Of a stretch of DNA of 64,000 nt, positions 26,399 to 42,677 are shown in pieces. Source of the DNA: Candidatus Uhrbacteria bacterium (GTDB lineage: Bacteria > Patescibacteriota > Patescibacteriia > UBA9934 > GWF2-40-263); assembly GCA_026395055.1 (NCBI GenBank), contig JAPLZK010000004.1:18805-82804 (forward strand), written 5' to 3'. Position numbers and translations under genes: made by a program. The notes under the pieces were generated by a model, which saw only the letters and a list, made by a program, of their open reading frames with translations, did not search any database and had not been told where the DNA came from. How positions within the stretch are numbered: the first letter of the stretch is position 1; the number at the start of each line of letters is the position of its first letter.

Positions 26399-29121
26399 AA
26401 GGATGGTTCAAACAAAGCGCTGAGAAAGGCATCTTCTGAATTAGGGAACTCTGCGTGTGAAAGATCCTGAGAGCTCCAAACAGTTTTCATCGAATTTGGC
26501 GTGTGAACATGAACGGTTGTGGAACGATTGTTTGCTCCGGATTGCTTTTGTAAGAGAATGGAATAATTTTCTGTTGGGGAAAGACCCAACCAGGATTTAA
26601 TCTCTTCCGTTGTTTTGTTTTTGGCAACGAGCGTGTTGAGAGTGAAGGGGAGCGTGTAGGTAAATGTTGTCACTGTTTCTGTTCCTGGTTTTGTTTGTGT
26701 CCAGTTTCCAAAAACTGTTTTTCCATTTTCTTCATACATTTGCGTGCCACTGTCTTTGTCGATGGTGAAACTTGCATCTGCAAATTGGAGATCCGGGTCT
26801 ACAATCCACGTTGGATCTGGTGTTTCAAACAGGCTGCCTCGTGGAATCGTGAATCCTTCCGCATGTGTAAGGACACTTCCCTTGGGAACGTAGAGTCTTT
26901 GGTAATTGACGTTGTGCGCTCCGGTGAACGGATCAAGCGGATCACCATGATGTTTGCGTGTAATGGTAACGGTGTTTGTGATCTCACCGTTTGAGGCGAC
27001 ATCAACGTTTACATCCACATGTTCGTCTATGACCGCATCCGTTTTTCCTCCACCTAAGTTTGTGTTCACGATCATCAAGTAATCTTTGTCTGTTTGCTTG
27101 AGATCTCCACCCCAACCACGTCCGAGAACCGTTTTTTCGACCGTTTCGTCTGTGAAGTAGAGTTGAATGTCTTTGTCTGCGAGCCCTTTGTTTAATTGAC
27201 CTGCAAGCGTAAGGAATGTGTCTGGAGATTCATGGAGCGCTTTTTCAATGAGCTTTGGAGCGAGCGCGCCAATAAAGGCTTTGGGTTTGTTTTCTGTTTT
27301 GTCGTATTCGTTTTCAACAATTTTCTGTGTTTCGGAAATAAAGTTTTGTTGATTGATCGTTCGATCAAACTCTGGCATTTCAACAGGACCAAGAAGACCG
27401 ATGAGGTCTTGAACGTAATTTGCGTTCACAGCAATCACACCATCTACATCGGATCCTCGTGAATTTTTATAGAACGAAATGATATGTCGCGCACTTGTGC
27501 GAAAATCGGGAAACCAGTTTGCGTCTTGGAACTCCCATTTGGCAGAAAGAAGTTGCAGTGGCCATGGGGCAACAAAGGATTGTTTTTGTTGTCCTTGAAG
27601 ATCGTATGTTCCCCCACCTGGGATATCGAGCTGTTCCATGACGCCGTTATGAACCGTCATCTCGGCAAAGCTTCCCATGAATCCTCCGGTTGGACGAAGT
27701 TCTGTGTTGTTTTGGAAAATGAGCAAGTAATGTTTTGTTTCGTTCGCGCCGAGGATGGTCGAGAGCGCATCGGACAATGAGAGAAAATCTTTTGTGGATG
27801 ATACAAGTGCGGGAAGCGTTGTTGTAAGTTGTGTGTACGTTTCTTTGTGATCGTCATTGATGGCAGTCAGGTCAACGTCTTTCATGGCGTCTTCCGCGGC
27901 AACCAAATGGGGAAGGGCGGAGCTGAGATATAAGTGAAGAATTTCAAGACGAGAGGATGGTGTTGGATTGACTTCTTGTTGCATGGCAGAGAATCCGTCT
28001 GTGATGCGAGAACCGGCAATGGAAAGTTCAGATCCAATTTTGAGAAGAGCGGTATTTGTTTTGACGGATTTTTGTGTTGGTGCAAGTGCAGCAAGGAGAA
28101 GGGAAACTCCGGATCCAAGGGAATCAATGTTTTCTTTTGCTTTTCCGAATTCCACACTCGCTGCGGCAAAATGCGCACCCGCTTCTGTTGGATTGGAAAC
28201 CAAGTTTGCTCCCGCAGCATCTTTCAAACTTTGTAAGGCTTGTGCGCCGTTTGCTTGTGCGTCTGTTTTTGCATCTCGCAAACGGTTCAGAACTTGCATG
28301 GCGTGGAGCGGAAGAACAAAGACGAACGAGAGAAGAACAAACACTCCAATGGTTTGTTGCCATCCGGAAGGCAGGATCAAAAAGTCGAAGGATGGGATCC
28401 AAGAGCGTTTTGGTTTTTCTTCCGGCTCGTCGCTTGTGAGATCTGGAACGTCTTCAACATCAAACAGTGATTCCAAATCTACATACTCGACTTCTTGACC
28501 ACTCGACTCCTCGACTACTTCTTCTTCCGGTAAATCGAAATACGATAAAATATTTTCTGGGAGCATTTTTGGTTCAAAGGAATCGATGGAAACGGATTCT
28601 TGTTTTTGAATACGCAGCGGCATGAGTTCTGGATTCATGCGTGTACGAAACATTATACGCGGATGAAACAACATTCCTTCGAATGTGGTTTTTGGTGCGG
28701 GGGTGTGTGCACTCATTTGGCCCTGAAGATCCGCGAGAGATAACTCGAGATCGTGCGTGGTGTCTGTGAGCGGTTCTTCGTCACGTTCCATTTCTGCTAA
28801 TGCATCTGCAAGGAAATTCAAGTGAATATCCATGTTTGGTTCGTCACGCAAAAGAGATTCTGGTGAGGGAACATGCGGACGAAGTTCTAAGATGAATGGA
28901 GAGAGTGTGGAGGATTCTTGTAGTTGAACGGATGGATTTTCTGCAGAGATGGTTGAGGATGTACGGAAATTTTCTGGGATTGCTTCATCAAAACGTAAGC
29001 CGTCATCAAGCAATGATTGGCGACGCACGGCATTTCTGAGTGCACGCTCAAAAGACACGCGAGAAAGATTTTTTCGCGGTTCTGGTTGTTTTTGGAATTG
29101 GTTAAGAACTTTTTTTGCCAC
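26395..29121 (-). CDS. Very large (908 aa) single-pass membrane protein with extracellular domain (possibly DUF4012-like)
   Basis: TM helix at about residue 250; conserved-looking block FQNNTELRPTGGFMGSFAE. Confidence 0.35.
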   Translation of the reverse strand: MAKKVLNQFQKQPEPRKNLSRVSFERALRNAVRRQSLLDDGLRFDEAIPENFRTSSTISAENPSVQLQESSTLSPFILELRPHVPSPESLLRDEPNMDIHLNFLADALAEMERDEEPLTDTTHDLELSLADLQGQMSAHTPAPKTTFEGMLFHPRIMFRTRMNPELMPLRIQKQESVSIDSFEPKMLPENILSYFDLPEEEVVEESSGQEVEYVDLESLFDVEDVPDLTSDEPEEKPKRSWIPSFDFLILPSGWQQTIGVFVLLSFVFVLPLHAMQVLNRLRDAKTDAQANGAQALQSLKDAAGANLVSNPTEAGAHFAAASVEFGKAKENIDSLGSGVSLLLAALAPTQKSVKTNTALLKIGSELSIAGSRITDGFSAMQQEVNPTPSSRLEILHLYLSSALPHLVAAEDAMKDVDLTAINDDHKETYTQLTTTLPALVSSTKDFLSLSDALSTILGANETKHYLLIFQNNTELRPTGGFMGSFAEMTVHNGVMEQLDIPGGGTYDLQGQQKQSFVAPWPLQLLSAKWEFQDANWFPDFRTSARHIISFYKNSRGSDVDGVIAVNANYVQDLIGLLGPVEMPEFDRTINQQNFISETQKIVENEYDKTENKPKAFIGALAPKLIEKALHESPDTFLTLAGQLNKGLADKDIQLYFTDETVEKTVLGRGWGGDLKQTDKDYLMIVNTNLGGGKTDAVIDEHVDVNVDVASNGEITNTVTITRKHHGDPLDPFTGAHNVNYQRLYVPKGSVLTHAEGFTIPRGSLFETPDPTWIVDPDLQFADASFTIDKDSGTQMYEENGKTVFGNWTQTKPGTETVTTFTYTLPFTLNTLVAKNKTTEEIKSWLGLSPTENYSILLQKQSGANNRSTTVHVHTPNSMKTVWSSQDLSHAEFPNSEDAFLSALFEPSL

Positions 29122-30220
29122 ACGTTTCGTAAATGGTTTGAATCGCTTGTGCCATCTTTTTCCATGAGTAGCGTTTTATTTGTTGGGTTCCTTTTTCAAT
29201 CAGGTTCGCGCGTTTTTGGGAAGAATCAACAAGTGTTGATAAAACGGTCGCCATGTTCTGTGAATCGTTTGGGTTGAAAAATGCGGCGGCGTCCCCAAGG
29301 ATTTCTTTGAGAGATGGAATGTCTGATGCCGCGACCGGAACTCCGACAGACATGGCTTCTAATGGCGGAAGTCCAAAACCTTCAACGCGTGATGGATACA
29401 CATACAGCAAGGCGTTTTGGTAAAGCTCTGCAAGGTGTTTATCTGTTGGGTGGTTGATGAATTCAACGTTTGTTGTTTTGTGTTCAAGAATGCGCTTATA
29501 AAAAACATTTTCTTTTCCTGCCAAAATCAGCGTGAGATCTGGATGTGTTTGTCGAAGAATTGTGAATGCCTCAAGGAGTCTCTCGAGATTCTTATGAGGA
29601 AACGCATTTCCAACGTAGAGCAAATATGGTCTCGAGCCCCCCTCCTTTACAAGGAGGGGTTGGGGGTGGTCGAGCGCAGTCACACCCTCATACACCACTT
29701 CAATCTTTTTTGGGTCAACACCTTCAATATGATGAAGAATGGAATTTGCGGTTGCGTGAGAGACACTGATAACTTTTTTTGCGGCGGTGATGGCGTGAGA
29801 AAGAACAAGTTTGTATCCCCAGTATTTTAGCGTAAAAATCGTTTGATGTCTTGTGGAAATCTTTGAGGAAAATGGTTCGTCGAGCAAAATTAGATCATGG
29901 ATGGTGACGACAAATGGTGTTCGAAGAAAAAGCGGAACGTTGAAGTGAGGGAAGTGGACGAGGTCGAGATGCTCGCGATCAACGATTCCTCCCATTTTCA
30001 GTTGTTCTTCGAGGCCGTACCAGTGAACATCTGCAAGTCGTTTCTCGAAGTTTGGATTCGTAATGACACACGTATCAAAATTCTCTTTTTTTAAAAACAA
30101 AACATAACGGTTCTTGGTGTCGACCATCTGGAGTTCATTCACCAGCTGTTCAACATATCTCCCAAGACCGCCCCCACCCACCATCGGGCCATACATACGT
30201 GCATCGATGCCGATATTCAT
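29102..30220 (-). CDS. Glycosyltransferase family 4 (GT-B) with in-frame palindrome B insertion
   Basis: EGFGLPPLEAMSVGVPV motif; start MNIGIDARMYG. The palindrome translates as PLLVKEGG within the linker before the LYVGNAFPHKN block. Confidence 0.7.
   Translation of the reverse strand: MNIGIDARMYGPMVGGGGLGRYVEQLVNELQMVDTKNRYVLFLKKENFDTCVITNPNFEKRLADVHWYGLEEQLKMGGIVDREHLDLVHFPHFNVPLFLRTPFVVTIHDLILLDEPFSSKISTRHQTIFTLKYWGYKLVLSHAITAAKKVISVSHATANSILHHIEGVDPKKIEVVYEGVTALDHPQPLLVKEGGSRPYLLYVGNAFPHKNLERLLEAFTILRQTHPDLTLILAGKENVFYKRILEHKTTNVEFINHPTDKHLAELYQNALLYVYPSRVEGFGLPPLEAMSVGVPVAASDIPSLKEILGDAAAFFNPNDSQNMATVLSTLVDSSQKRANLIEKGTQQIKRYSWKKMAQAIQTIYETCGKKSS
29627..29649. repeat. Palindromic element B, copy 3 (inside the GT4 CDS, in frame)
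   Basis: CCCCCCTCCTT-tac-AAGGAGGGG. Confidence 0.85.
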
Positions 30221-30346
30221 GAGGGAATTATAGCAGAAAGTCCTGAAGTCGTGGAGTTGTGGAGTGTTGGACAGTGCATATTTTATTCCAATGAAAAACA
30301 CCCGCCGCAGCAAACACAGAATGTGTTGTTGGGACGGGTGTGAGGT

Positions 30347-30826
30347 TTACTTCTTGGCGATGACGGCCACCATTTCCGCGTATCTTTCGCAATCGATGTT
30401 GGTTTGCGAGATCAATCGATCACCATGTCCGTCCATCGTCCGGACCACACGTGCGCTGCACTGCGGTTCATTCTCGGTAGGCGTTTTGCACACAAAGAGC
30501 TCTATGTGTGTGGTTGCATTGCTCCAGGTGGAAACGCACAGAGTCGCGTCTGCACCGGGCGTGAGACGTTTGACGCTTGCCCTTGCGGTCTGGGTGATCG
30601 CGTCGGAGGGATCCACGGCCGGCTTGTTGCAGAGAGCCAATTTCGTCTCCGCATTGTCGGCGCGTGCTTTTTCGAACTTCAGATCCTCAACCAATTTTTC
30701 GTTGGTCTGTTGCAGCAGGTCGATGTGCGCTTGGTCGAGCCTCGCTTGTTTGATCGCTTCGGCGTTGTTGCAGCCGAATACGGACATGAGCAAGAGAATA
30801 CCGATCATCTTGATAAGAGCACGCAT
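30347..30826 (-). CDS. Putative lipoprotein (159 aa)
   Basis: Signal peptide with an LMSVFGC lipobox. Confidence 0.5.
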   Translation of the reverse strand: MRALIKMIGILLLMSVFGCNNAEAIKQARLDQAHIDLLQQTNEKLVEDLKFEKARADNAETKLALCNKPAVDPSDAITQTARASVKRLTPGADATLCVSTWSNATTHIELFVCKTPTENEPQCSARVVRTMDGHGDRLISQTNIDCERYAEMVAVIAKK

Positions 30827-30884
30827 GTTTGCCTCCTCAGTGTGCACGAGATGCCTCTCGAGCAGGGTTGAAATGAACATGTCG

Positions 30885-31568
30885 TTACACTGCCGGTTCG
30901 TCCTTCTTCGGTTCGAACTCGACCGCGTAGTAGCAGACTTCGACGCGATAGCCTTCGCCCTTGCGCACGTCGATGCGCATCAGGCCGGCCCATGCGTGTT
31001 CGAGTTCCTTGAGTTTTATCTCGAGGTCATCGAAGTTTTTGAAGCCGTACGGTTCGAGGTTGTTCTCGTAGAACTTGTCACTGTTACAACCACCACCTTT
31101 GGTGTTGCGTGCCATATCCTCGAGGTACCTCGGCAAGGTCCAGAAGCCGTCGAGCTCGCCCTTGTACCAACCGTTTTCGTTGGCGAACTTGCGACAGGAT
31201 TCCGGAATCCGGAACGCGAGTTCTTTCGCGAGATCCGTCCAGACCTTCATTGCTTCGGCCTCGAGTGCGGCCTTGCGTTCGATTGAACTCTTGAGCGACG
31301 CGACGATCTGGATCTTGAGCCGATTGAATCCGTGGAATCGATCGCACGCGCCTTCAACCGAATCGATTGTCCTCGTGTCGGGCTTGAACGTCCAGCGCAA
31401 GCCGTCTTTCAACAGGACGTGCATATACCCTGCTTCGTCTGGTGCATCGAATGTGACGCACCCGATCGTTTGCGTATAATCGTTGTATAGGCCATGTGGT
31501 CCGATCAATGAAAACACGATTGTCTTTCCTGCGAACCGATCGCGCAATGCTTCGACAGTGAGCTGCAT
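30885..31568 (-). CDS. Hypothetical protein (227 aa)
   Basis: AGGAAACC before the ATG; no motifs. Confidence 0.45.
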   Translation of the reverse strand: MQLTVEALRDRFAGKTIVFSLIGPHGLYNDYTQTIGCVTFDAPDEAGYMHVLLKDGLRWTFKPDTRTIDSVEGACDRFHGFNRLKIQIVASLKSSIERKAALEAEAMKVWTDLAKELAFRIPESCRKFANENGWYKGELDGFWTLPRYLEDMARNTKGGGCNSDKFYENNLEPYGFKNFDDLEIKLKELEHAWAGLMRIDVRKGEGYRVEVCYYAVEFEPKKDEPAV

Positions 31569-31629
31569 GGTTTCCTCCTAAGTGGACGAGGTGCCCCTCG
31601 ACGATTCGTTGTTGTCGAATCGATTTTAG

Positions 31630-31740
31630 CATCTCAGCTCCCACTCACGACCGTTTCGCGAAGGGGAGAAAGACCACGTCATTCACGAATGACGTGGGAG
31701 CGCTCGATAACATTCTCCGAAATGTTATCGAGCGAGAACT
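31630..31740. repeat. Island-2 element D, copy 1 (ATCTCAGCTCCCACTCACGACCGTTTCGCGAAGGGGAGAAAGA + two hairpins)
   Basis: Shares a roughly 40-nt core with 32170-32252 and 33040-33112. Confidence 0.65.
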
Positions 31741-32118
31741 TTACGAAGGTACCTCTGCAAGCGACCGCGTGGAAAGGAAAAGTAGCTTTGTAATGTCTTC
31801 AATGACGAGTTGAAACATGACGATGCAGAACAAGTCCTTTGCCGCCTCATTATCTCTCTTGATTGTATCGCCGGACGCTCCTAGGTTGGTGCAATGGAGA
31901 CTGCGGCAGAAGCCGTAATCCGACCTGTCGAGCGTGTATTCGTAAAGCCGTTTCCCATCACTGACAAGAATGCTGAAGCCTTCATACGGTTTTTCCGCGT
32001 GCTTGATTGCAATCGTGTCGCAACCATGTTCGTTCGGCCAACCGATGTCGTTCTCAAACAATCCACCGTCGAGGTTCTTGAACTTTTCGAGAATTTTCAG
32101 CAATTGTTCGCGTGACAT
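31741..32118 (-). CDS. Hypothetical protein (125 aa)
   Basis: AAAAGG SD upstream of ATG 32118; element D2 lies 50 nt upstream. Confidence 0.45.
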   Translation of the reverse strand: MSREQLLKILEKFKNLDGGLFENDIGWPNEHGCDTIAIKHAEKPYEGFSILVSDGKRLYEYTLDRSDYGFCRSLHCTNLGASGDTIKRDNEAAKDLFCIVMFQLVIEDITKLLFLSTRSLAEVPS

Positions 32119-32169
32119 TCTTTTGCCTTTTGTATGCGCGTTGTGTCGACGCATAGTGTATCGAACGAT

Positions 32170-32252
32170 TGATCTCAGCTTCCATTCGCGACCGTTTCGC
32201 GAAGGGGAGAAAGAGCTCGACGTGATCGCGAGGGGCGATCTGATCGAGTAAG
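32170..32252. repeat. Island-2 element D, copy 2
   Basis: GATCTCAGCTTCCATTCGCGACCGTTTCGCGAAGGGGAGAAAGAGCTCGACGTGATCGCGAGGGGCGATC. Confidence 0.65.
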
Positions 32253-32410
32253 AATGTGAATGAACGTTCTCTCTAGCACAAATCGAGCGAGGTCGCGACC
32301 GGCGCAGTTGCGCGCGGGCCGTCGCCTTCTTCTTTGGTGGATTTGCGGGAGAGCTTTGCATGGAGCAGTTCCAGAAACAATCGCAGCATGAGACTCCTTG
32401 TGCCGGCGAC

Positions 32411-32791
32411 TTAATGCGCGGGCTGGCTGTAGAAATCCGTGATGAACATCTTGCCATTCAAACGACCGCGGCCGAGCCAGACTCGGAGAATGTTCCCGTT
32501 TTTATGGCGGTACGTTCCTTCCGTCACGCCGATCCAATCCTGTTCACCGTTTACTTCGAGGAGCAAATGCCACTCGGCTGGGACGGTTTTGTAGCGCCAC
32601 ATTTTCGTTGCGGCAAACCAGGTGTAATCGAATTCTTGGTGTGCGGGCTTGAAGTCGTGATTGACGACGACTGCATCCGCGACTTCGAGTTCGACACTGA
32701 CCGTGTTGATCAGATGGTAGATACCAGCGACAACGACAGCCAAGACCAGAAGGCCGAGGAGTCCGAGAAGACCGATGACGAACCAATCCAT
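32411..32791 (-). CDS. Membrane-anchored hypothetical protein (126 aa)
   Basis: N-terminal TM helix (FVIGLLGLLGLLVLAVVVAGIY). Confidence 0.45.
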   Translation of the reverse strand: MDWFVIGLLGLLGLLVLAVVVAGIYHLINTVSVELEVADAVVVNHDFKPAHQEFDYTWFAATKMWRYKTVPAEWHLLLEVNGEQDWIGVTEGTYRHKNGNILRVWLGRGRLNGKMFITDFYSQPAH

Positions 32792-32843
32792 TTTTTCCTC
32801 TCTGTGCCGACCCGAGCTTTGGGTGTGCAAGAATTTATGGTGC

Positions 32844-32981
32844 TTAGCGGACCGTCCGCGGCACGTTATTCATTGGAACACTCACCACATGCGGCGGATG
32901 CCAGATGCGGTAGATTCGCGCGCACGTTTTGGGGACGAGCAGAGTGAAGAGAAGCAGAAAAAGTTTCTGTCGGTAGGACAT
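32844..32981 (-). CDS. Small hydrophobic peptide (45 aa)
   Basis: Strong AAGGAG SD 5 nt upstream of ATG 32981; it is below the ORF-track cutoff; element D3 lies upstream. Confidence 0.35.
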   Translation of the reverse strand: MSYRQKLFLLLFTLLVPKTCARIYRIWHPPHVVSVPMNNVPRTVR

Positions 32982-33039
32982 GAGACTCCTTTTTCGAGTT
33001 GTCTCTCAATGTCGATCAAAATGTTCGACGTTTTTTCGA

Positions 33040-33112
33040 ACTTCCATCCACGATACACATCGCGAAGGGGAGAAAGAGCTCGACGCGATCGCGAGAGGCG
33101 ACGTTGTCGAGC
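33040..33112. repeat. Island-2 element D, copy 3
   Basis: ...CGCGAAGGGGAGAAAGAGCTCGACGCGATCGCGAGAGGCGAC..., nearly identical to copy 2 over about 50 nt. Confidence 0.65.
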
Positions 33113-33133
33113 AAGATGGAAATGTGCGTTGTC

Positions 33134-33499
33134 TTAGTACTCCTCGTCATGGATGTAGATCATGACGAGCGCGCCGTTCTTTGACACGAGACCGCCGAGT
33201 GCTTCCACGAGCATCCGCGCTTCCTGGCCGGGCACATCGTCCGGTTCCGCAAGGTGCCACCGTATGTGGAAGTCATTGACGCCGAGGACGAGGGCCAGAT
33301 AGTGAGCGAGTTCTTTCTCGCTCTCGACTTGCGTGACGATGGCACGGACGCAGATTTGTCGCTCCGTTTGCGTCATGGTCTCGTAGGTCTTCCGCATGTT
33401 GAGGATGAGATGCTTGCCCATCAACTGAGTGAGCGTATCGCGGGACCGTGAACGATTCACAACTCGCTTGATGACTGGATTTTGCAGAACTGCAACCAT
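33134..33499 (-). CDS. Hypothetical protein (121 aa)
   Basis: AGGAG SD upstream of ATG 33499. Confidence 0.45.
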   Translation of the reverse strand: MVAVLQNPVIKRVVNRSRSRDTLTQLMGKHLILNMRKTYETMTQTERQICVRAIVTQVESEKELAHYLALVLGVNDFHIRWHLAEPDDVPGQEARMLVEALGGLVSKNGALVMIYIHDEEY

Positions 33500-33551
33500 G
33501 AATTCTCCTGTTGTCGACGAATTGAATCGTGGGCGTTGTTGCTGGTTGAAC

Positions 33552-33896
33552 TTACTCCGCGAGCAGATAATCCACGACGCGGCGGTAGGTGCGGGCGGCC
33601 TTGGCCTGATCCGTGACAAGTGTCCGTGTGCCAACTTGGCCACGATAGCCTTCGATGTTCGAATAGCGCACGCACTTGATCTCGCCCGCCTCTTCGAGGA
33701 CGCGCAGCGAGGCGTATGGTTGCTCCTTGTCTACGACGTAGATGGCGAAACCGTCTGATGTGAGGTCGAGCAGGAGCGGTGCTTCGGTCCGTTTCAGGAA
33801 CGCGAAGAGCGCTCTCCAGAACCGTTGCGCCGCTGGATCTTGATCGATCGCGTTGAAGTCAATCAAAACTTGTTGCACGTTCACGTGAATTTCCAT
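33552..33896 (-). CDS. Hypothetical protein (114 aa)
   Basis: The GCGAGATCGCGTCGGC dyad lies immediately upstream of the ATG. Confidence 0.45.
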   Translation of the reverse strand: MEIHVNVQQVLIDFNAIDQDPAAQRFWRALFAFLKRTEAPLLLDLTSDGFAIYVVDKEQPYASLRVLEEAGEIKCVRYSNIEGYRGQVGTRTLVTDQAKAARTYRRVVDYLLAE

Positions 33897-33929
33897 GCCG
33901 ACGCGATCTCGCGTAAGCGTTGTTCTCGA

Positions 33930-34226
33930 TCAATGCACCAAGCTCTGCGAACGTCGCAAAGCGGAACCCCATTCCTTCATTGCTTGGGTCCGGATCCAGA
34001 CCTCGAGGGTTTCACGCGAGCGCGAAGCCTTGAGGAGGTGTCCACCCCAAAAAATCGTATCACCCTCGATTGGGACCTCGAGGGTGTGTGTCTCCCAACC
34101 GACTTCGATGTCGATTGCGATCACGAGACCGCGTTGGTTGATCAGCCACTCTCCGTCCTTGGGTGCACCGGCGTGGATTTCCACGATGCGGCTGTTTGGC
34201 GGCATCACAATGGCGAGGTGTGCCAT
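33930..34226 (-). CDS. Hypothetical protein (98 aa)
   Basis: CGCGAAATCGCGTCGGC dyad followed by AAGGAG SD. Confidence 0.45.
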   Translation of the reverse strand: MAHLAIVMPPNSRIVEIHAGAPKDGEWLINQRGLVIAIDIEVGWETHTLEVPIEGDTIFWGGHLLKASRSRETLEVWIRTQAMKEWGSALRRSQSLVH

Positions 34227-34396
34227 TTAATATTCTCCTTGCCGACGCGATTTCGCGCGGGCGTGTCATGGTTATTTCTTAACTTGAGTCTTCGATCAAG
34301 AGAGATAATCGAATGCTCGAGAAAAGCCATGTCGTTACAGGAACGACATGGAAGGCTCGATGCTCGTCATGAGTGACAAGGTGTCGAGTGGGAATG

Positions 34397-34621
34397 CTAG
34401 GCGCAGAGCAGGCGCGCCAGGTTGGCGTCGAACTGGTGGGGTTGTTCGTCGTCACGAACGTCGAGTCGCGACACCCGTTCGCGCAGTTCGGTTGCGATCA
34501 TCGCGTCCTCGCCGTCGATGAGGTGTGGGCGATGCCGGAACTCGAACTCGCGGCGCGTGATGACGCGATCGCTCGGACGGTAGACGCGACGCGAACGATT
34601 GGGACTGGAATTGGAACGCAT
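34397..34621 (-). CDS. Hypothetical protein (74 aa)
   Basis: AGGAG SD upstream of the ATG. Confidence 0.4.
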   Translation of the reverse strand: MRSNSSPNRSRRVYRPSDRVITRREFEFRHRPHLIDGEDAMIATELRERVSRLDVRDDEQPHQFDANLARLLCA

Positions 34622-34712
34622 GAGTCTCCTGTGCTCCGATTTTTATTCGGCGCAAGTCTTGAATCTTCTCCTCAGACCGACCATCACCATGCGACATTCG
34701 CAAATGCTGGGC

Positions 34713-34813
34713 GGTATCGAGTCCGCGAGCAGTGAAGCTGCTCGCGGCAAGTCGAAATGATTTCAAAGAGCGAAACTCGTTCAGCGCGAAGCTGATTGAG
34801 AGGGTGAGCGGGT
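34713..34813. repeat. Island-2 element C, copy a (~105-nt conserved element with covarying hairpin, loop TGAAGC)
   Basis: CCGCGAGCAG-TGAAGC-TGCTCGCGG hairpin, then TTTCAAAGAGC...GCGCGAAGCT..GAGAGG. Confidence 0.7.
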
Positions 34814-34824
34814 TGTGCGGAAGC

Positions 34825-35034
34825 CTACGCGCGCCACTTGGTGCGGCGGAAGTTCTTCCAGGTGCGGCTGTTGCGCGGACGATTGATGTCATCGTACGCA
34901 CTCGGGACAGTGCTCGTGGTGCGGCGATTCTTGAGCTTGAAGCTCACAAAGTCGCCGTCGAACGCATCCACTTCGAGCGCGTGACGCGCACGAATCTCCT
35001 GGGTCGTATTCATGCCGCGATGAGGATCATACAT
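34825..35034 (-). CDS. Hypothetical protein (69 aa), weak start context
   Basis: ORF only; weak SD. Confidence 0.3.
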   Translation of the reverse strand: MYDPHRGMNTTQEIRARHALEVDAFDGDFVSFKLKNRRTTSTVPSAYDDINRPRNSRTWKNFRRTKWRA

Positions 35035-35100
35035 GTTGAGTACCTGAGAAGGCGTGATTGCCTATCTCATGACGGGCCTCCTTTGTGCGGTGTTGATTGC

Positions 35101-35358
35101 CTAGTTGTGTTCGCGTTCCCAGCGACGGTTTTTGCTTTCCGGCTCTGCGATCGCACGTTCGATCACCTTGTCGATGTGCGGCAGGAATCCTTCGGGCTGC
35201 GTCGTGGGCCAGCTCTTCTCGATCGCTTCTTGGTAGAGGTAATCGCGAATCTGTTCACGCGTCATCGGCTCGGTGATGTAACCGTCCGAGACCGTAGTCC
35301 ACATGCGGAAATGCAACGAACCATCTTTCTTCGTACGCGCATGCACAACGTGTGCCAT
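35101..35358 (-). CDS. Hypothetical protein (85 aa)
   Basis: GTGCGAAATCGCATCGGC dyad followed by AAAGGAAA upstream of the ATG. Confidence 0.45.
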   Translation of the reverse strand: MAHVVHARTKKDGSLHFRMWTTVSDGYITEPMTREQIRDYLYQEAIEKSWPTTQPEGFLPHIDKVIERAIAEPESKNRRWEREHN

Positions 35359-35405
35359 GTTTTCCTTTATGTGCCGATGCGATTTCGCACGGGCGGGTTG
35401 GTTGA

Positions 35406-35630
35406 TTACTTCTTGTACTGCTTGTTTCCGACCATGAGTCCGATCATGCCGAGGGCGGCGTAGGTCGGCAGCATCATGTAGTAGCCAGTCTTCTGTATGA
35501 ACACGAGCGACGTGATCTCCTCGCCCTTCGCGGTTTTTTCGATGAGATCGACGGCGTCCTTGTTCAACGTGTAGCCGCAAAGCTGCGACAGGAGGAAGCA
35601 CAACAGACCAAGCAAAATATTCGTAAGCAC
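35406..35630 (-). CDS. Small 2-TM membrane protein (74 aa, GTG start)
   Basis: GGAG 8 nt upstream of the GTG; CGCGAGATCGCGTCGAC dyad upstream. Confidence 0.35.
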   Translation of the reverse strand: MLTNILLGLLCFLLSQLCGYTLNKDAVDLIEKTAKGEEITSLVFIQKTGYYMMLPTYAALGMIGLMVGNKQYKK

Positions 35631-35704
35631 TGGCAGACTCCACTGTCGACGCGATCTCGCGTAGACGTTCTCACTCTGCTTCGCGCACCACGTATCCGCC
35701 AATC

Positions 35705-35812
35705 GGAAGTGATGTTCGAAGTCGAGTCCCTGTTTGTGAAGCAAACAGGGCAAGACGGTTTTCAAAGAGCAACACTCTCATTTGCGCGAAGCTATGTGAG
35801 AGGGGAGTCGAA
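35705..35812. repeat. Island-2 element C, copy b
   Basis: GAAGTGATGTTCGAAGTCGAGTC-CCTGTTTG-TGAAGC-AAACAGGG...TTTTCAAAGAGC...CTCTCATTTGCGCGAAGCTATGTGAGAGG. Confidence 0.75.
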
Positions 35813-35816
35813 GGTG

Positions 35817-36762
35817 CTAGGCGGCCTCCTGCATGTTGAAGTGTTCGTTGTTGAGTTCGAATTCTTCCATCATGCGAGCTTCCGCTTGCGCCCTCATCTT
35901 GTCGACGTACGTGTTCCATGCCGCCACTTCGCGCTCTCGCTTGGTGAACGCTGCAGACATTTCGTCGCCGATCGTCCACGCGCAGTGGAACTTCGGCTTG
36001 TGACGCGCCCACTGCTTGGTCGCGTTGTCGGGGAAGTTCTTCTGTTCGAAGTCCCAGATGTGGATCCAACGATCGTCACCCGGGATTTTGTTCTTCTTTT
36101 CTTCGGCCATGATGTTGTAAACGCGGTCGGAATGACACCCTAGCCCGCGACGGCGCTTGTTCTTCCAGGACAATCCGTTGCGCTGCCGATTACGCTGGTT
36201 CTTTTTCGAACCATTCAGCTTTTGATACCGCGCTTCCGTTGTCGCGAGCTTCTCCTCGCCTTCGAGGTTCGACTCGATGTACACGTGGCCGCGCGGGTCG
36301 CACTTGGGCTTGTCGCGCTGCTCGTCTTTGACCTGCTCTTCGGCCGCTGCGCGATCCATCCACCAGAACCGCATGTGCAGTTCCGTGATTTTGCGCTGCA
36401 GGTTCATGCGGGCATTCCACTCCCGGTTCTCGCGCAGCGTGTACATCATCGCGTGATGGGTGATCTGCACGTGATCGAGATCGAGATCGTTGTCGTCATC
36501 CTCGACCAAGTCGCTTTCGTCGCGCTTGGCCCAGTGGACTTCGATGCCGTTCCCGCGACCGGGTTTTTTCGGCGTGATGTCCTTCGTCATGTTCGCCACC
36601 CAGCGCTTGTCCATTTCCGCGAGACGTTCCTCGTCGAGGATGAACCGTGGCGCGCGTGCCATCGACATCTGACGCGGCTCGCCCTTGTACGGGTCGAACC
36701 ACTTCGTGCCGATGATGCCACGACGACCGCTCGAGGACTTTCCGAAACTCAGCATGAGAATC
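35817..36762 (-). CDS. Hypothetical charged protein (315 aa)
   Basis: AAGGA SD before ATG 36762. It has highly charged blocks (DDDNDLDLD; KNQRNRQRN) and no family assignment. Confidence 0.45.
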
Positions 36763-36883
36763 CTTATGGCCGACCCAATATTGGGCGGGCGATCTTTCCA
36801 CCGTAGTTTTTTACGAAGGTGGATGTTGTTGTTTACACATTCAGGAACCAGACTCAGTCCGCCCACCACCGCACGAGAGACGT

Positions 36884-36987
36884 GAAGTGATGTTCGAAGT
36901 CGAGTCTCCCAGTTGTGAAGCAACTGGGAGCAGGACGAAGATTTCAAAGGAGCTAGGCTCTCATTCGCGCGAAGCTAAGTGAGAGGA
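36884..36987. repeat. Island-2 element C, copy c
   Basis: GAAGTGATGTTCGAAGTCGAGTC-TCCCAGTTG-TGAAGC-AACTGGGA...TTTCAAAGGAGC...CTCTCATTCGCGCGAAGCTAAGTGAGAGG. Confidence 0.75.
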
Positions 36988-37009
36988 AAATGTGTTGATG
37001 ATGGCTCGA

Positions 37010-37555
37010 TTACTTCTGGGCGGTGTCCTTCGGAAGCACCAGCTTGAAGTCGATGACCTTGCCGTCGGCGCTGCGCACGAACTCGTACTTCGCGAGATCG
37101 GGGCCGTAGTAGGGGGCGTCTTTCTTCTTGAACCAGATCGCTCCATCAGACACGCTGAGATGGTGTGTCTGGAACCAGCTGTTGCGGTAGGTGCACTTTT
37201 CGTACGCCGTGTCCTTGTACTTCTTCTCGCACTCGTCGTTTCCGGCCTTGACGGTGACGAGTGCGTCGAAGGTGTTCATGAGCGCGATGTGCTCCAGATC
37301 GGACGCGGTCTTGGTCGCTTCGAGCTGCTTGCTCAATTCCGCGACCTTGTCCGTCGCCGTCTTCAACTCGGTCGTCGTTTCGGTCAGTTTTTCTTTGGCC
37401 ACTTTGCCGGCGTCGAGCTGATCGGCCACTTCCAGTGCGTGGGCGTTGTAGCCTTGCTCCACGATCACGTTGCCGATGGCCCTGATACCGAAGCCGGCAC
37501 CAACCACCAGAACAATTGCACCCAAGAACGTCAGAACGGGATAGAAACCCTTCAT
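37010..37555 (-). CDS. Membrane-anchored coiled-coil protein (181 aa)
   Basis: N-terminal TM helix followed by a heptad-rich segment; AAGGAT SD. Confidence 0.45.
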   Translation of the reverse strand: MKGFYPVLTFLGAIVLVVGAGFGIRAIGNVIVEQGYNAHALEVADQLDAGKVAKEKLTETTTELKTATDKVAELSKQLEATKTASDLEHIALMNTFDALVTVKAGNDECEKKYKDTAYEKCTYRNSWFQTHHLSVSDGAIWFKKKDAPYYGPDLAKYEFVRSADGKVIDFKLVLPKDTAQK

Positions 37556-37630
37556 GTGCTTATCCTTTTTTGATTTGGCGCGTCCATTGCGCCGCAAGAC
37601 ACTCTCACCGAACACTACTCTTTGACTGCC

Positions 37631-37738
37631 GCAGAGTTATGTTCAGAGTCGAGTCCCGCAGCTGTGAAGCAGTTGCGGGCAGACCTGGTTTTCAAAGAGC
37701 GATTCTCTCATTCGCGCGAGGCTACGTGAGAAAGGGGG
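37631..37738. repeat. Island-2 element C, copy d
   Basis: TTATGTTCAGAGTCGAGTC-CCGCAGCTG-TGAAGC-AGTTGCGGG...TTTTCAAAGAGC...CTCTCATTCGCGCGAGGCTACGTGAGAAAGG. Confidence 0.75.
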
Positions 37739-37939
37739 TCATTTGTTGTGTGTGTCGCGGTGTGCGTCGCGTTTCAAGATGCCGTCGCGGATCTTCATGC
37801 GATCCTTGTCGACGCGCTTCTCATGGAAACGCTGATCATTGTTCATACCGGCCGCGATGCGAGCCTTGCGAACCGCCGCGATCGTGTCTTTCACGACCTG
37901 GGGGGTATTCCTTTTCTTCTTGTTTTTGTGCTTTGCCAC
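37739..37939 (-). CDS. Small highly basic protein (66 aa), possible nucleic-acid binding
   Basis: Lys/Arg-rich (MAKHKNKKKRNTPQ...). Confidence 0.4.
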   Translation of the reverse strand: MAKHKNKKKRNTPQVVKDTIAAVRKARIAAGMNNDQRFHEKRVDKDRMKIRDGILKRDAHRDTHNK

Positions 37940-38000
37940 GATCTTTTGCCTTTTTGCTCCGCGTACATAGCGCCGAGCGAACGTATTTCGATGAATAACA

Positions 38001-38054
38001 GAAAAACCGATACTTGTTTATTTCAACGAGAGAAATACTCAAATATCGGTTTTC
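38001..38054. repeat. Nested inverted repeat at the island-2 right boundary (possible bidirectional terminator)
   Basis: AAAACCGATA ... TATCGGTTTT 10-bp arms with internal ATTTC/GAAAT arms, flanked by A and T runs. Confidence 0.5.
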
Positions 38055-38274
38055 AAAAATAGGGCCCTCGACACGTTCGGGCAATATGATTGATTTTTTT
38101 ACTATCGATCTATCCTTTTCAGGATATATGGGACTGGATAGTGCAGCTCTCTCCCCATGGTTGTAAAAGAGGTAAGACGGAACAGACGTTTTTTTGACGA
38201 CTATTCAATCTAAGCATGGACATACTATATCACTTTTTGGCGCTTTTGTCAAGACCTGAGTGCAAAAAAATCGC

Positions 38275-39441
38275 TCATTTGAGCGATTTTTCAAAAATAG
38301 CGAGGGTTTGTTCCGCGGCTTTTTTCCAGGAAAACTCGGTTGCTCGCTCAAGTCCAGCCTTTTTGAGCTGTTCATGCAGGGGTTTGAGCGAAATGATGCC
38401 TTTTAAGGCGTCCGCGATGTCTTGGATGTTAAACGGATCAACATGCAACGCGCCTGAGCTCGTAACTTCAGGCATGCTCGAGATATTGCTTGTGATAACC
38501 GGGAGTCCAGAAGCCATTGCCTCGAGAATGGGAAGGCCAAAGCCTTCGTAGAACGACGGCCAGATAAAGACGCTGGCGGAACGGTAGATTGCGGGGAGAT
38601 CAAGTGGGTTTATGTATTCGAGGTTATGCACCCAATCATGAACATCGCGCTTCCAAAGTCGTCGACGGATGTTGTGAGACTTCCAACCCCATTTTCCCAC
38701 AAGAACAAGATGTAAATCGTCGTGCGTCATTTCGCGATACCGTTTTACACCTTCAATGATCGACAAGACATTCTTGCGTGGTTCGATCGTTCCGACAAAA
38801 AGGGCGAAGCGTTTCGGAAGTTTGAGCTTCGATCTGACACCGTGATCATGCGCTTCCATTCTTGGATGGAAGGTTGATGTGATGCCGTGCGGAATGGCTG
38901 CAATCTCGTCTGGGGATTTGCGAAACATACGTGCGACGTCATGGCTTGTTGTGTTGGATGGCGTAATCACGAATCGCGCATCGCGGATGAGTTTGTGCGC
39001 ATCAAGTAGATGATGCCATACGCGCATTTTGCGAGAAAAAAAATCTGGAAAAAATTTCCAAGAAACATCGTGAATGGTAAGGACGGTTGGAATGGAGGTT
39101 GGAAGAACCGTGATGTTTAGGTTTGGAAGAAACACAAGATCAATTGGATCCTTCACGAGCCAGTTGATGGCTGGTTGTTTCATTAAAAGTAATTTGAGAT
39201 TCAAAAATTTATTCGCCATCGGAACATGTGTATGTTTCACGAATGCTGGGAAGACAAATGATGGGGAAGTGCGTGAGCGAAAGATTGAAAGGAGGTCAGG
39301 TGCTTCTCGGCCAGACGTCAGCAAAATATATTCGTGAGTATTTGCTAAAGCAAAAAGCGCGCCGAGGAGTTGAATGGTGTACTCTCCGACGCCGCTTTGT
39401 TCGTGTGTATTCAAATGTCTACAATCAACGAGGATGCGCAT
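38275..39441 (-). CDS. Glycosyltransferase family 4
   Basis: EGFGLPILEAMASGLPVITSN motif. Confidence 0.7.
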   Translation of the reverse strand: MRILVDCRHLNTHEQSGVGEYTIQLLGALFALANTHEYILLTSGREAPDLLSIFRSRTSPSFVFPAFVKHTHVPMANKFLNLKLLLMKQPAINWLVKDPIDLVFLPNLNITVLPTSIPTVLTIHDVSWKFFPDFFSRKMRVWHHLLDAHKLIRDARFVITPSNTTSHDVARMFRKSPDEIAAIPHGITSTFHPRMEAHDHGVRSKLKLPKRFALFVGTIEPRKNVLSIIEGVKRYREMTHDDLHLVLVGKWGWKSHNIRRRLWKRDVHDWVHNLEYINPLDLPAIYRSASVFIWPSFYEGFGLPILEAMASGLPVITSNISSMPEVTSSGALHVDPFNIQDIADALKGIISLKPLHEQLKKAGLERATEFSWKKAAEQTLAIFEKSLK

Positions 39442-42027: not shown

Positions 42028-42254
42028 CGAGGCGAGATTCTTTGGGTTCCAAAGGAGTGATCTGTAAGCCGAATTTTGTCTACCCTGTCTTTCAACAGAG
42101 GAGGCGATCATCTATCTTGTCTCATTGTCGCCAATGAGATCGTGCGAGCTACCAAATTTGCTCTTTCACCGAAAAGGGTTTGCCACACATGCATGTCACC
42201 ATGCAGCGAGATACGTAATCTTGCGATACCGTATCACTTTTCACCTTTCATTTT

Positions 42255-42412
42255 GCGAAGCAAAATGACCCTGAGCCTGTCGCCCTTCAAATTTTTCAGG
42301 GCGACCATGAGTCCGATCGAATGGTCGAAGGGTGCATGCGCATAGTATGGGCATAAGCTTGGACCCTTCGACTCACTGCGTTCGCTCAGGATAATTTTGC
42401 TTCGCAAAATTA
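42255..42412. repeat. ~160-bp nested inverted-repeat element (MITE-like or structured RNA)
   Basis: Outer arms TTTTGCGAAGCAAAAT..CCTGAGC and GCTCAGG..ATTTTGCTTCGCAAAA, with inner hairpins GTCGCCC/GGGCGAC and GTCGAAGGGT/ACCCTTCGAC. Confidence 0.55.
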
Positions 42413-42677
42413 GTATTGTCTCTGTGGTACTTTCCCTAAGGTTGGTATTCGGGATCAAAGCGTGAATTGCTCCAACGCCTCGCGCTCGAATGCGTATCCT
42501 TGGTTGTCGTTAACAACTTTTCTTGTTGTCGTATATTGCTATGCGACAGGTGTTCGGACTTTCCTCCCAGACGTTTGTCCAGGTAATCACCCGATCATCC
42601 TTTAGAACGTGGGGAAGCATACCAGTTTCAAGGGGAAATGTCAATGGAATTTGGGTAAGAAAAAACCGCACCATGGA

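Follow-up and report, generated by a model that had tools for sequence, protein, structure and literature searches.

Covarying three-hairpin spacers in a strain-variable gene array of Candidatus Uhrbacteria

Arrays of short genes, each followed by a structured repeat, are best known from integrons, where the repeat is the attC site, an imperfect hairpin of 57-141 nucleotides (nt) that bears R and L boxes, extrahelical bases and a central spacer left unpaired. Integrons recombine the bottom strand of attC, and attC clusters without an integron integrase are known as CALIN. Hairpins between cistrons are also familiar from the RNase III sites that separate genes of phage T7, as well as from the 3' stabilisers of the repetitive extragenic palindromic (REP) type in Escherichia coli operons. 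In this work, we analyzed a stretch of 64,000 nt from Candidatus Uhrbacteria (assembly GCA_026395055.1, contig JAPLZK010000004.1, positions 18,805 to 82,804), hereafter referred to as the window, focusing on an intergenic spacer element that occurs four times in an array of small co-oriented genes. A cassette array with structured repeats is in itself a known organization, but the parts found here fail the tests for membership among the integrons. Full-text searches of the literature on Uhrbacteria, Patescibacteria and the candidate phyla radiation (CPR) returned no description of such arrays or repeats.

The original prediction had placed four repeats at positions 34713, 35705, 36884 and 37631, and all of them were located there. 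On the plus strand, each copy presents GAGTC, a stem, TGAAGC, the partner stem, TTTCAAAG(G)AGC and the dyad CTCTCA..TGAGAG, in this order; the stems of the four copies (CCTGTTTG, TCCCAGTTG, CCGCAGCTG and CCGCGAGCAG) differ from each other while each complements its own partner, the sole flaw being one G-T in the copy at 37631, which corresponds to A-C on the opposite strand. The extent and orientation first given to the element had to be revised, though. Spacers start 5-25 nt past a minus-strand stop codon and end 45-130 nt ahead of the next start, so that the relevant reading is the reverse complement; moreover, the element spans 140-190 nt and includes a third hairpin; the 105 nt or so originally described covered approximately 60% of this element. 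Read in the direction of the genes, the order is a first hairpin (H1), the linker GCTCTTTGAAA, a second hairpin (H2, variable stem with loop G-CTTCA-C) and then GACTCGACTTCGAACATCAC. H1 is a variable stem enclosing a conserved ..AGCUUCGCGCGAA.. interior, the linker is conserved, unpaired and U/A-rich (GCUCUUUGA(A/C)A), and H2 has a variable stem of 9-16 bp with the loop usually being GCUUCAC. Directly 3' of it lies the third hairpin (H3), long and of the form ACUC..CUUCG..CAUCAC-(variable tip)-GUGGUG..CGAAG..GAGU, whose 5' strand, GACTCGAC..CATCAC, falls past the point where the element had been thought to end. Downstream of H3 come small hairpins in the 5' untranslated region (UTR), the ribosome-binding site and the next start codon. 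The loop TGAAGC, described earlier as invariant, is so within the window; elsewhere, GCTTCAC (its gene-sense form) is the commonest H2 loop, but at least six related copies have other loops, and some copies carry extra inserted hairpins. In the copy at 34713, the GAAGTGATGTTCGAAGTC part is missing and the 3' half differs, being a module that is also present in the copies at 2518 and 6229 of L027, one of the related loci, which are cited here by such handles.

Pairing was then evaluated on a larger set of copies. Across 30 copies from nine contigs, H2 pairing reached 97.9%, and both sides had changed in 8 of the 10 pairs, which upholds the claim that compensatory covariation points to a single-stranded nucleic-acid hairpin under selection. 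In a shuffle control, none of 500 randomizations reached the observed values, and in a sliding control shifted 3' partners paired only 25-45%. The second dyad noticed earlier, CTCTCA/TGAGAG, corresponds to H1 and also covaries, all 6 pairs showing double changes (e.g., CTCTCA/TGAGAG, AACCA/TGGTT, TTCCA/TGGAA and CTCGA/TCGAG), while H3 adopts the same fold in 28 copies, with 5 compensatory pairs among 13 consensus pairs when 19 copies are considered. Two outer pairings suggested by RNAfold, TTTGAA/TTCGAA (71% paired) and GTC/GAC (57%), were essentially without compensatory change. Regarding the strand, approximately 7 G-U cells in H2 and 32 in H3 were counted on the gene strand, where the other strand would have A-C mismatches, as compared to only 2-3 cells of the reverse type; in addition, a U-G within CAUCAC/GUGGUG is kept in 16 of 19 copies, and all 36 matches of a covariance model lie on the gene strand. 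This G-U bias, together with the rarity of the opposite mismatch, indicates that the gene-sense strand is the folding strand. The hairpins are kept by selection on the gene-sense strand, and the folding molecule would be the transcript or, less likely, the same strand as single-stranded DNA.

The covariance model, a check that had been proposed from the start, was built from 18 copies of the spacer; it scored the copies in the window at 89-116 bits, with E-values from 1e-18 to 6e-25, and detected no further copy within the 64 kb at E ≤ 1. When genome, metagenome and viral collections were scanned by exact pattern, the element was recovered on only a few contigs. Instead of being absent from relatives, as a counter-argument to the element would have it, at least 36 copies, across which all three hairpins covary, were found in 11 contigs, assigned to Candidatus Uhrbacteria by title or by flanking genes. 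One of these contigs, L013 (CAYHWG010000058.1), is deposited as an uncultured Gammaproteobacteria metagenome-assembled genome; it carries an Uhrbacteria-type array and a flanking glycosyltransferase 80% identical in DNA to that of the window, and was therefore probably mis-binned. Retrieval of orthologues of the flanking GT4 gene added six arrays that occupy this locus (L062, L064, L065, L066, L072 and L073), while a more distant orthologous locus, L068, has neither array nor element. The genome with MGEI01000005.1 holds a second array at another locus, adjoining rpsP. A pattern scan of a 569 kb scaffold gave matches in its two arrays only, and no element was found outside the array in the other 56 kb of the window. 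Most of the loci L002-L061 from the collection scans were set aside as chance matches, mainly within coding regions, as were the viral-contig pattern matches L001 and L075.

The locus itself is part of a bacterial chromosome of approximately 44% GC, in which a scan at Rfam gathering thresholds recognized RNase P RNA and three tRNAs. The array forms an island of approximately 7.6 kb with a GC content of 52-57%, against about 44% in its flanks, and is bounded by two glycosyltransferase genes. Orthologues of the upstream GT4 gene flank the arrays in L027, L062, L064/L065, L066, L072 and L073, and those of the downstream one border the far array end in L013, L064/L065 and L073. The array genes had no match in Pfam, PHROG or PADLOC. 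A phage or plasmid origin was rejected (no blastn match in either collection and no PHROG match), and so was a defence island (no PADLOC match). The largest array open reading frame (ORF), g13 (35817-36755), has 8 homologues among 5.8 billion proteins; the idea that its family might be an array-associated enzyme was abandoned, as the family is missing from several complete arrays and the AlphaFold model (pLDDT 48.8) is too poor. On the gene strand of the island there is only one good sigma-70 promoter (Table 1), which is conserved upstream of seven arrays, and we propose that the whole array may be read from it, through a structured leader, up to a putative terminator past the last gene. The hairpin of this terminator is not listed in a simple terminator scan because its loop is longer than the scan allows.

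Comparison of related arrays showed that the same locus between GT4 genes holds different gene sets in the window, L027, L013, L062, L064/L065, L066, L072 and L073. These arrays have their spacers in common but only a small number of genes, and there is no gene family that every array contains. L064 and L065, which come from one study, are 99.9% identical, except that L064 has 1060 additional nt, corresponding to two genes and one spacer. The single spacer of L065 at this point consists of the left part of one of the L064 flanking spacers and the right part of the other, with the crossover lying within a 52-nt identical stretch that starts at the H2 loop and reaches the 5' arm of H3. The gain or loss of cassettes can be seen directly in this pair. 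Further junctions were observed in mosaic copies: in L027, two paralogous units show 88% identity over the 5'-UTR hairpin, the ORF and H1 up to GCTCTTTGA, and diverge beyond it; genes of the g13 family in six contigs (the window and five others) have the same TAG-TTCCTTC(A/G)AC-H1-linker sequence downstream (TAG..CCTTCGAC..H1..linker); and the whole spacer downstream of a g10-like gene is common to L027 and L073, the breakpoint falling where this spacer ends, while the window copy of the gene is followed by a spacer of a different family. The ends of these shared segments indicate that an upstream gene tends to take the 5' part of its spacer along. Breakpoints are spread over several conserved blocks and do not fall on one fixed nucleotide. 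Overall, one event and the mosaic patterns of several copies show that recombination joins, deletes and swaps gene units at the conserved blocks lying between variable stems.

Table 1. Coordinates of spacer copies and associated features (window positions, unless a related locus is named).
Feature	Position	Strand	Description
Element copy D	37601..37741	minus	Between g15 (stop 37739) and g14; model match 37626-37741, 107.8 bits, E = 5.6e-23
Copy D, H1 and linker	37727-37733 / 37704-37710; 37689-37700	minus	H1 arms; linker GCTCTTTGAAAA
Copy D, H2 and H3	37670-37679 / 37655-37664; 37665-37669; 37601-37654	minus	H2 arms; loop CTTCA; H3
Element copy C	36851..36994	minus	Between g14 (stop 37010) and g13; model match 36877-36994, 116.4 bits, E = 5.6e-25
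Copy C, H1 and linker	36980-36985 / 36958-36963; 36941-36953	minus	H1 arms; linker
Copy C, H2 and H3	36921-36930 / 36906-36915; 36916-36920; 36851-36905	minus	H2 arms; loop; H3
Element copy B	35673..35811	minus	Between g13 (stop 35817) and g12; model match 35700-35811, 103.7 bits
Copy B, H1 and linker	35797-35802 / 35775-35780; 35759-35770	minus	H1 arms; linker
Copy B, H2 and H3	35742-35750 / 35728-35736; 35737-35741; 35673-35727	minus	H2 arms; loop; H3
Element copy A	34668..34811	minus	Between g10 (stop 34825) and g9; model match 34695-34811, 89.3 bits
Copy A, H2	34738-34747 / 34723-34732	minus	H2 arms; H1 and linker also present; 3' half is another module (ACTCGATACCGCC...GGTCTGAGGAG)
L064/L065 indel	L064 12005-13063; L065 8182-8299		Two-gene difference bounded by spacer copies
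Family 2 spacer, copy 1	33022..33123	minus	Hairpin, GCTCTTTC, hairpin TTCGCGA..TCGCGAA; repeat families and nhmmer, E = 1e-24
Family 2 spacer, copy 2	32159..32261	minus	Repeat search and nhmmer
Family 2 spacer, copy 3	31618..31713	minus	Repeat search and nhmmer
Third spacer family	L044 native 4-78, 425-475, 1371-1462, 1934-2025, 3442-3516; L017 native 4560-4690		
Gene array	30347..37939	minus	About 15 small genes of 45-312 aa, unknown function; ORF list and composition
Upstream GT4 glycosyltransferase	38275..39441	minus	Pfam; host gene marking the conserved locus
Downstream GT4 glycosyltransferase	29102..30220	minus	Pfam; host gene
Sigma-70-type promoter	38224..38252	minus	TTGACA, 17 nt, TG-TATAGT; 11/12 matches
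Leader hairpin	38128..38158	minus	UGGG-GAGAGA-GCUG-CACUAUC-CAGU-CCCA; YTTYACAAYY precedes
Terminator-like hairpin and U-run of leader	37996..38056	minus	Inverted repeat directly before first gene; conserved in seven arrays
Leader across seven arrays	37996-38252	minus	L027 1950-2150; L044 (gene-sense) 6740-6940; L062 4990-5290; L064 11215-11490; L066 5780-6060; L072 3000-3260
Putative terminator of whole array	30290..30346	minus	Hairpin and U-run past last gene; read from sequence
Hairpin-TCGGC(A) modules	33892-33920, 34236-34264, 35368-35396, 35640-35668, 36765-36795, 32800-32830	minus	
Mini-ORF module in relatives	L027 ~7225-7260; L073 ~5005-5040; L013 ~2240-2275; L017 native ~3340-3375		

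Based on these results, our preferred explanation, which we hold with about even confidence, is that the spacer works as a structured RNA that insulates and stabilizes cistrons and, as DNA, offers a homology anchor for cassette exchange. The sense-strand structure lies between the cistrons of one predicted transcript, as expected of an intercistronic processing or stabilizing element, and orientation, G-U bias and the single promoter together support such an RNA element. Processing of the RNA, or protein binding to it, would be its most likely function. H1 may cap the 3' end of the upstream cistron, and the 5' side of the downstream cistron would be protected by H2 and H3; an endonuclease would probably enter or cleave at the U/A-rich, single-stranded linker (GCUCUUUGAAA). 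The structure would in addition keep each ribosome-binding site free and shield approximately 200 nt of untranslated RNA from Rho or nucleases. At the DNA level, the conserved blocks may serve as homology anchors for the exchange, duplication and deletion of gene units between arrays of related cells, through recombination that would be driven by homology (of the RecA type, or gene conversion after DNA uptake) and would require no dedicated site-specific enzyme.

Several observations weigh against this explanation. Processing, stabilization and insulation are all inferred from sequence. G-T wobbles form in single-stranded DNA too, so that a folded site on the sense strand of DNA is possible. 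There is only one clean gain or loss event, and it fits homologous and site-specific recombination alike. Moreover, at least 60 nt of primary sequence are conserved across species that are approximately 80% identical in housekeeping flanks, while ordinary nuclease signals need no such conservation, which may reflect a specific partner, either protein or RNA, or a selected recombination function. Finally, the explanation does not account for the origin of the GC-rich gene pool.

A bolder proposal can also be made. Candidatus Uhrbacteria might possess an undescribed gene-cassette platform made of promoter, structured leader RNA and three-hairpin spacers, in which private GC-rich cassettes would be captured, shuffled and expressed in the absence of integrase or attC, by means of an enzyme yet to be named acting on the folded spacer or of a step at the RNA level. 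This would amount to an independent second invention of the integron principle in CPR bacteria, and we put it forward as a possibility that is doubtful at present.

An alternative that we find unlikely but deserving of close comparison is that a dedicated recombinase, encoded elsewhere in the genome, uses the spacer as an attC-like site and recognizes it as folded single-stranded DNA with a defined cut point, which would make the array an integron analogue without a linked integrase. An analogy to attC had also been among the first suggestions for the element, and the surroundings do agree with it: the layout is that of an integron, with promoter-less, co-oriented genes of unknown function behind one promoter and a structured repeat after each; the composition of the array is foreign to the host; gene content differs between strains at a fixed locus, one genome having a second array elsewhere; the 5' part of the spacer moves with the upstream gene, as in attC; variable stems between conserved flanks recall the variable terminal structure of attC; and strings resembling GTTAGAA/GTTAGAC occur at spacer and leader ends. 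The site itself, judged on end complementarity, hairpin layout, strand and integrase search, does not follow. Spacer ends are not complementary, the duplex energy being -6.86 kcal/mol for cognate and -7.01 for non-cognate ends (28 copies), and the outer TTTGAA/TTCGAA and GTC/GAC pairings do not covary, so there is no closing helix. Canonical attC was therefore rejected: paired RYYYAAC/GTTRRRY ends are missing, and the RYYCAAC-like and GTKAGAA-like strings that do occur are direct, not inverted, repeats, and inconsistent across copies. Three independent hairpins follow each other over approximately 190 nt, instead of one bulged hairpin, the gene-sense strand is the one that folds, and breakpoints are scattered over several blocks. 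No recombinase domain was detected in the 30 non-array ORFs of the window or in the array genes, nor was a recombinase found adjoining any of 10 arrays, whose flanks were covered by precomputed Pfam annotation (L062, L064-L068, L072 and L073) and by a scan of the flank of L044. A CALIN has no integrase by definition, but its attC sites have to be detectable.

Rather less probable, in our view, is that the spacers act as a binding platform for a putative RNA-binding protein or RNA partner controlling the array (e.g., by processive antitermination or co-ordinated translational control) together with the hairpin and terminator of the leader. Conserved unpaired motifs, namely the H1 interior, the linker and the H2 loop, would suit sequence-specific recognition, and the conserved order of promoter, hairpin and terminator in the leader implies regulated read-through. 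The leader hairpin follows a fixed plan (4 bp, a GAGAGA internal loop, 4 bp and the loop YRCURUY), and alignment of seven arrays showed covariation in both of its stems, 4 of the 8 pairs being compensatory; no Rfam model matched it. The apical loop of the terminator-like hairpin, UCUCUC, is complementary to the GAGAGA loop. The leader looks like an undescribed attenuator, riboswitch or small RNA. A leader peptide, MGREL.YPVP, was considered and discarded, since both stems covary; in addition, its third codon positions are unchanged across diverged genomes and the ATG is lost in L064. A second spacer family and a third share a common plan of hairpin, pyrimidine-rich linker of the GCTCTTT type and hairpin, with covarying stems, and the leader sequence GGGGAGAGAGCU is complementary to the linker AGCUCUUUCUCCCC of family 2. 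However, its complementarity to the linker of the element described here (family 1) is limited to approximately 6 nt, other sequences can take the place of the H2 loop, and the arrays do not all have any one gene family in common. In L017, positions 480-600 are a hybrid of family 2 and of H1 from family 1. In L066, a ParD-type antitoxin gene and a gene for an 87-aa partner (5132-5620, opposite strand) lie between the glycosyltransferase and the array leader.

That the element is a selfish repeat with no role in the array, such as a miniature inverted-repeat transposable element (MITE) or a REP or bacterial interspersed mosaic element (BIME), seems very unlikely to us. It is intergenic, hairpin-rich and placed after stop codons, some copies have TCAAC(AAC) on both sides, and standard copies show strings resembling CTCTCA..TGAGAG near both ends. 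On the other hand, it is confined to arrays in the window and in the pattern scan of the 569 kb scaffold, always has one orientation relative to genes, and changes in a strand-specific, compensatory manner that indicates selection on the fold. Only 4-5 of 18 copies have the flanking duplicate, and similarity between the ends is lost where H1 varies; a MITE with the target duplication TCAAC(AAC) and CTCTCA/TGAGAG ends was rejected as inconsistent across copies. No transposase of the HUH or RAYT type was found among the 30 non-array ORFs of the window. Lastly, a new self-cleaving ribozyme or other catalytic or processing RNA cutting the transcript between cistrons would suit sense-strand repeats having several helices with conserved unpaired joints, but is also very unlikely, as the helices are serial and not arranged around a junction, no conserved core can be defined, H2 and the H3 tip are freely replaceable, and Rfam 15 (4227 models, including ribozymes, riboswitches and EAR), searched at E ≤ 5 over 30000-38400, matched only RT-9, by chance and on the opposite strand (23.7 bits against a threshold of 46.1, E = 2.5).

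Three further identities were also discarded. A hammerhead-like core (CUGANGA/GAAA) has motifs in an order and at positions that do not fit, and no Rfam match. A termination signal, one of the functions first suggested for the element, is not supported, as neither strand has a U-tract next to the hairpin: on the gene strand GACUCGACUUCG comes after H2, and on the other strand CAAGACGG precedes UUUUC; the terminator scan lists none of the copies. A sigma-70 promoter within the spacer was rejected as well, for the linker contains TTGACA/TTGAAA but no -10 box follows at 16-18 nt, and the distance from this motif to the loop varies, including by a 60-nt insertion.

Other features of the array and of the window were recorded along the way. 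At the starts of array genes a hairpin, CAAC, GGAGG and ATG recur, and the spacing from stop codon to H1 is regular. Many array genes have a short variable-stem hairpin and TCGGC(A) directly before the ribosome-binding site, while in others a different UTR hairpin module (AATCGACG..CGTCG or GCTCGGCG..CGCGGAGC) precedes CAAC and GGAGG. Another conserved 5'-UTR module, at 35062-35083 on the minus strand, comprises a strong ribosome-binding site (AAGGAGG), a two-codon start-stop mini-ORF (ATG AGA TAG/TAA) and GGCAATCACGCC; it precedes the actual start of the g10-like gene by approximately 30 nt, and in L017 it stands before an unrelated gene. Several array ORFs, read by eye and without a predictor, seem to begin with transmembrane segments or signal peptides of the lipoprotein type. 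GC skew is near zero within the array (30000-38000; -0.02 to 0.09) and clearly positive in most flanking DNA, which is consistent with DNA unadapted to the host replicon. Away from the array, the ORF at 8688-10385 (plus strand), in a patch of 53-60% GC at approximately 8000-11000 that is likewise GC-rich for this genome, has matches to the TROVE (Ro60) and vWA domains. In bacteria, Ro60 genes usually adjoin Y-RNA-like genes, and none was reported near this ORF at Rfam thresholds. The RNase P RNA (class A; 42048-42602, minus strand) measures 555 nt against the 367 positions of the model, and therefore has large insertions.

CPR genomes are tiny, yet this one maintains an array of approximately 8 kb, roughly one-third of which is structured spacer, and some relatives have 10 kb or more. 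If the spacers make the array both exchangeable and expressible, this would represent a new organization of strain-variable accessory genes, following integron logic with different parts, and it could explain how episymbionts with minimal genomes diversify small secreted or membrane proteins. At least two conserved RNA structures, the spacer and the leader hairpin, had escaped annotation, and searches based on attC and intI would miss such arrays. There is a real chance that the array is a separate system.

Among described systems, the closest in organization are the CALIN and sedentary chromosomal integrons with their attC repeats (e.g., the VCRs of Vibrio), which share with this locus one upstream promoter and short, co-oriented, promoter-less genes of unknown function, with a structured repeat of approximately 100-190 nt per gene whose stems vary while pairing holds. 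Composition foreign to the host, content varying among close relatives at a fixed site and inheritance of the 5' part of the repeat with the upstream gene are common to both. Integrons differ in having intI, which is found neither in the window nor by the 10 arrays, and pairing RYYYAAC/GTTRRRY ends; in attC being a single bulged hairpin and not three serial ones; and in strand and breakpoints, the fold here being gene-sense and the breakpoints scattered rather than fixed. In place of attI and Pc, the array has a structured leader with a terminator. REP/BIME and MITEs resemble the spacers as short, hairpin-forming intergenic repeats after stop codons, but here there are one or two arrays per genome and one orientation, a head motif of the GTAG type is missing, as is any RAYT or other transposase, and target-site duplication is not consistent. 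The phage T7 RNase III sites and the E. coli REP 3' stabilizers are likewise sense-strand intercistronic hairpins that are not terminators and occur in several similar copies per transcript; the Uhrbacteria spacers are much longer, modular and tied to gene turnover, and their primary sequence is conserved across species even though the genes between them are unrelated.

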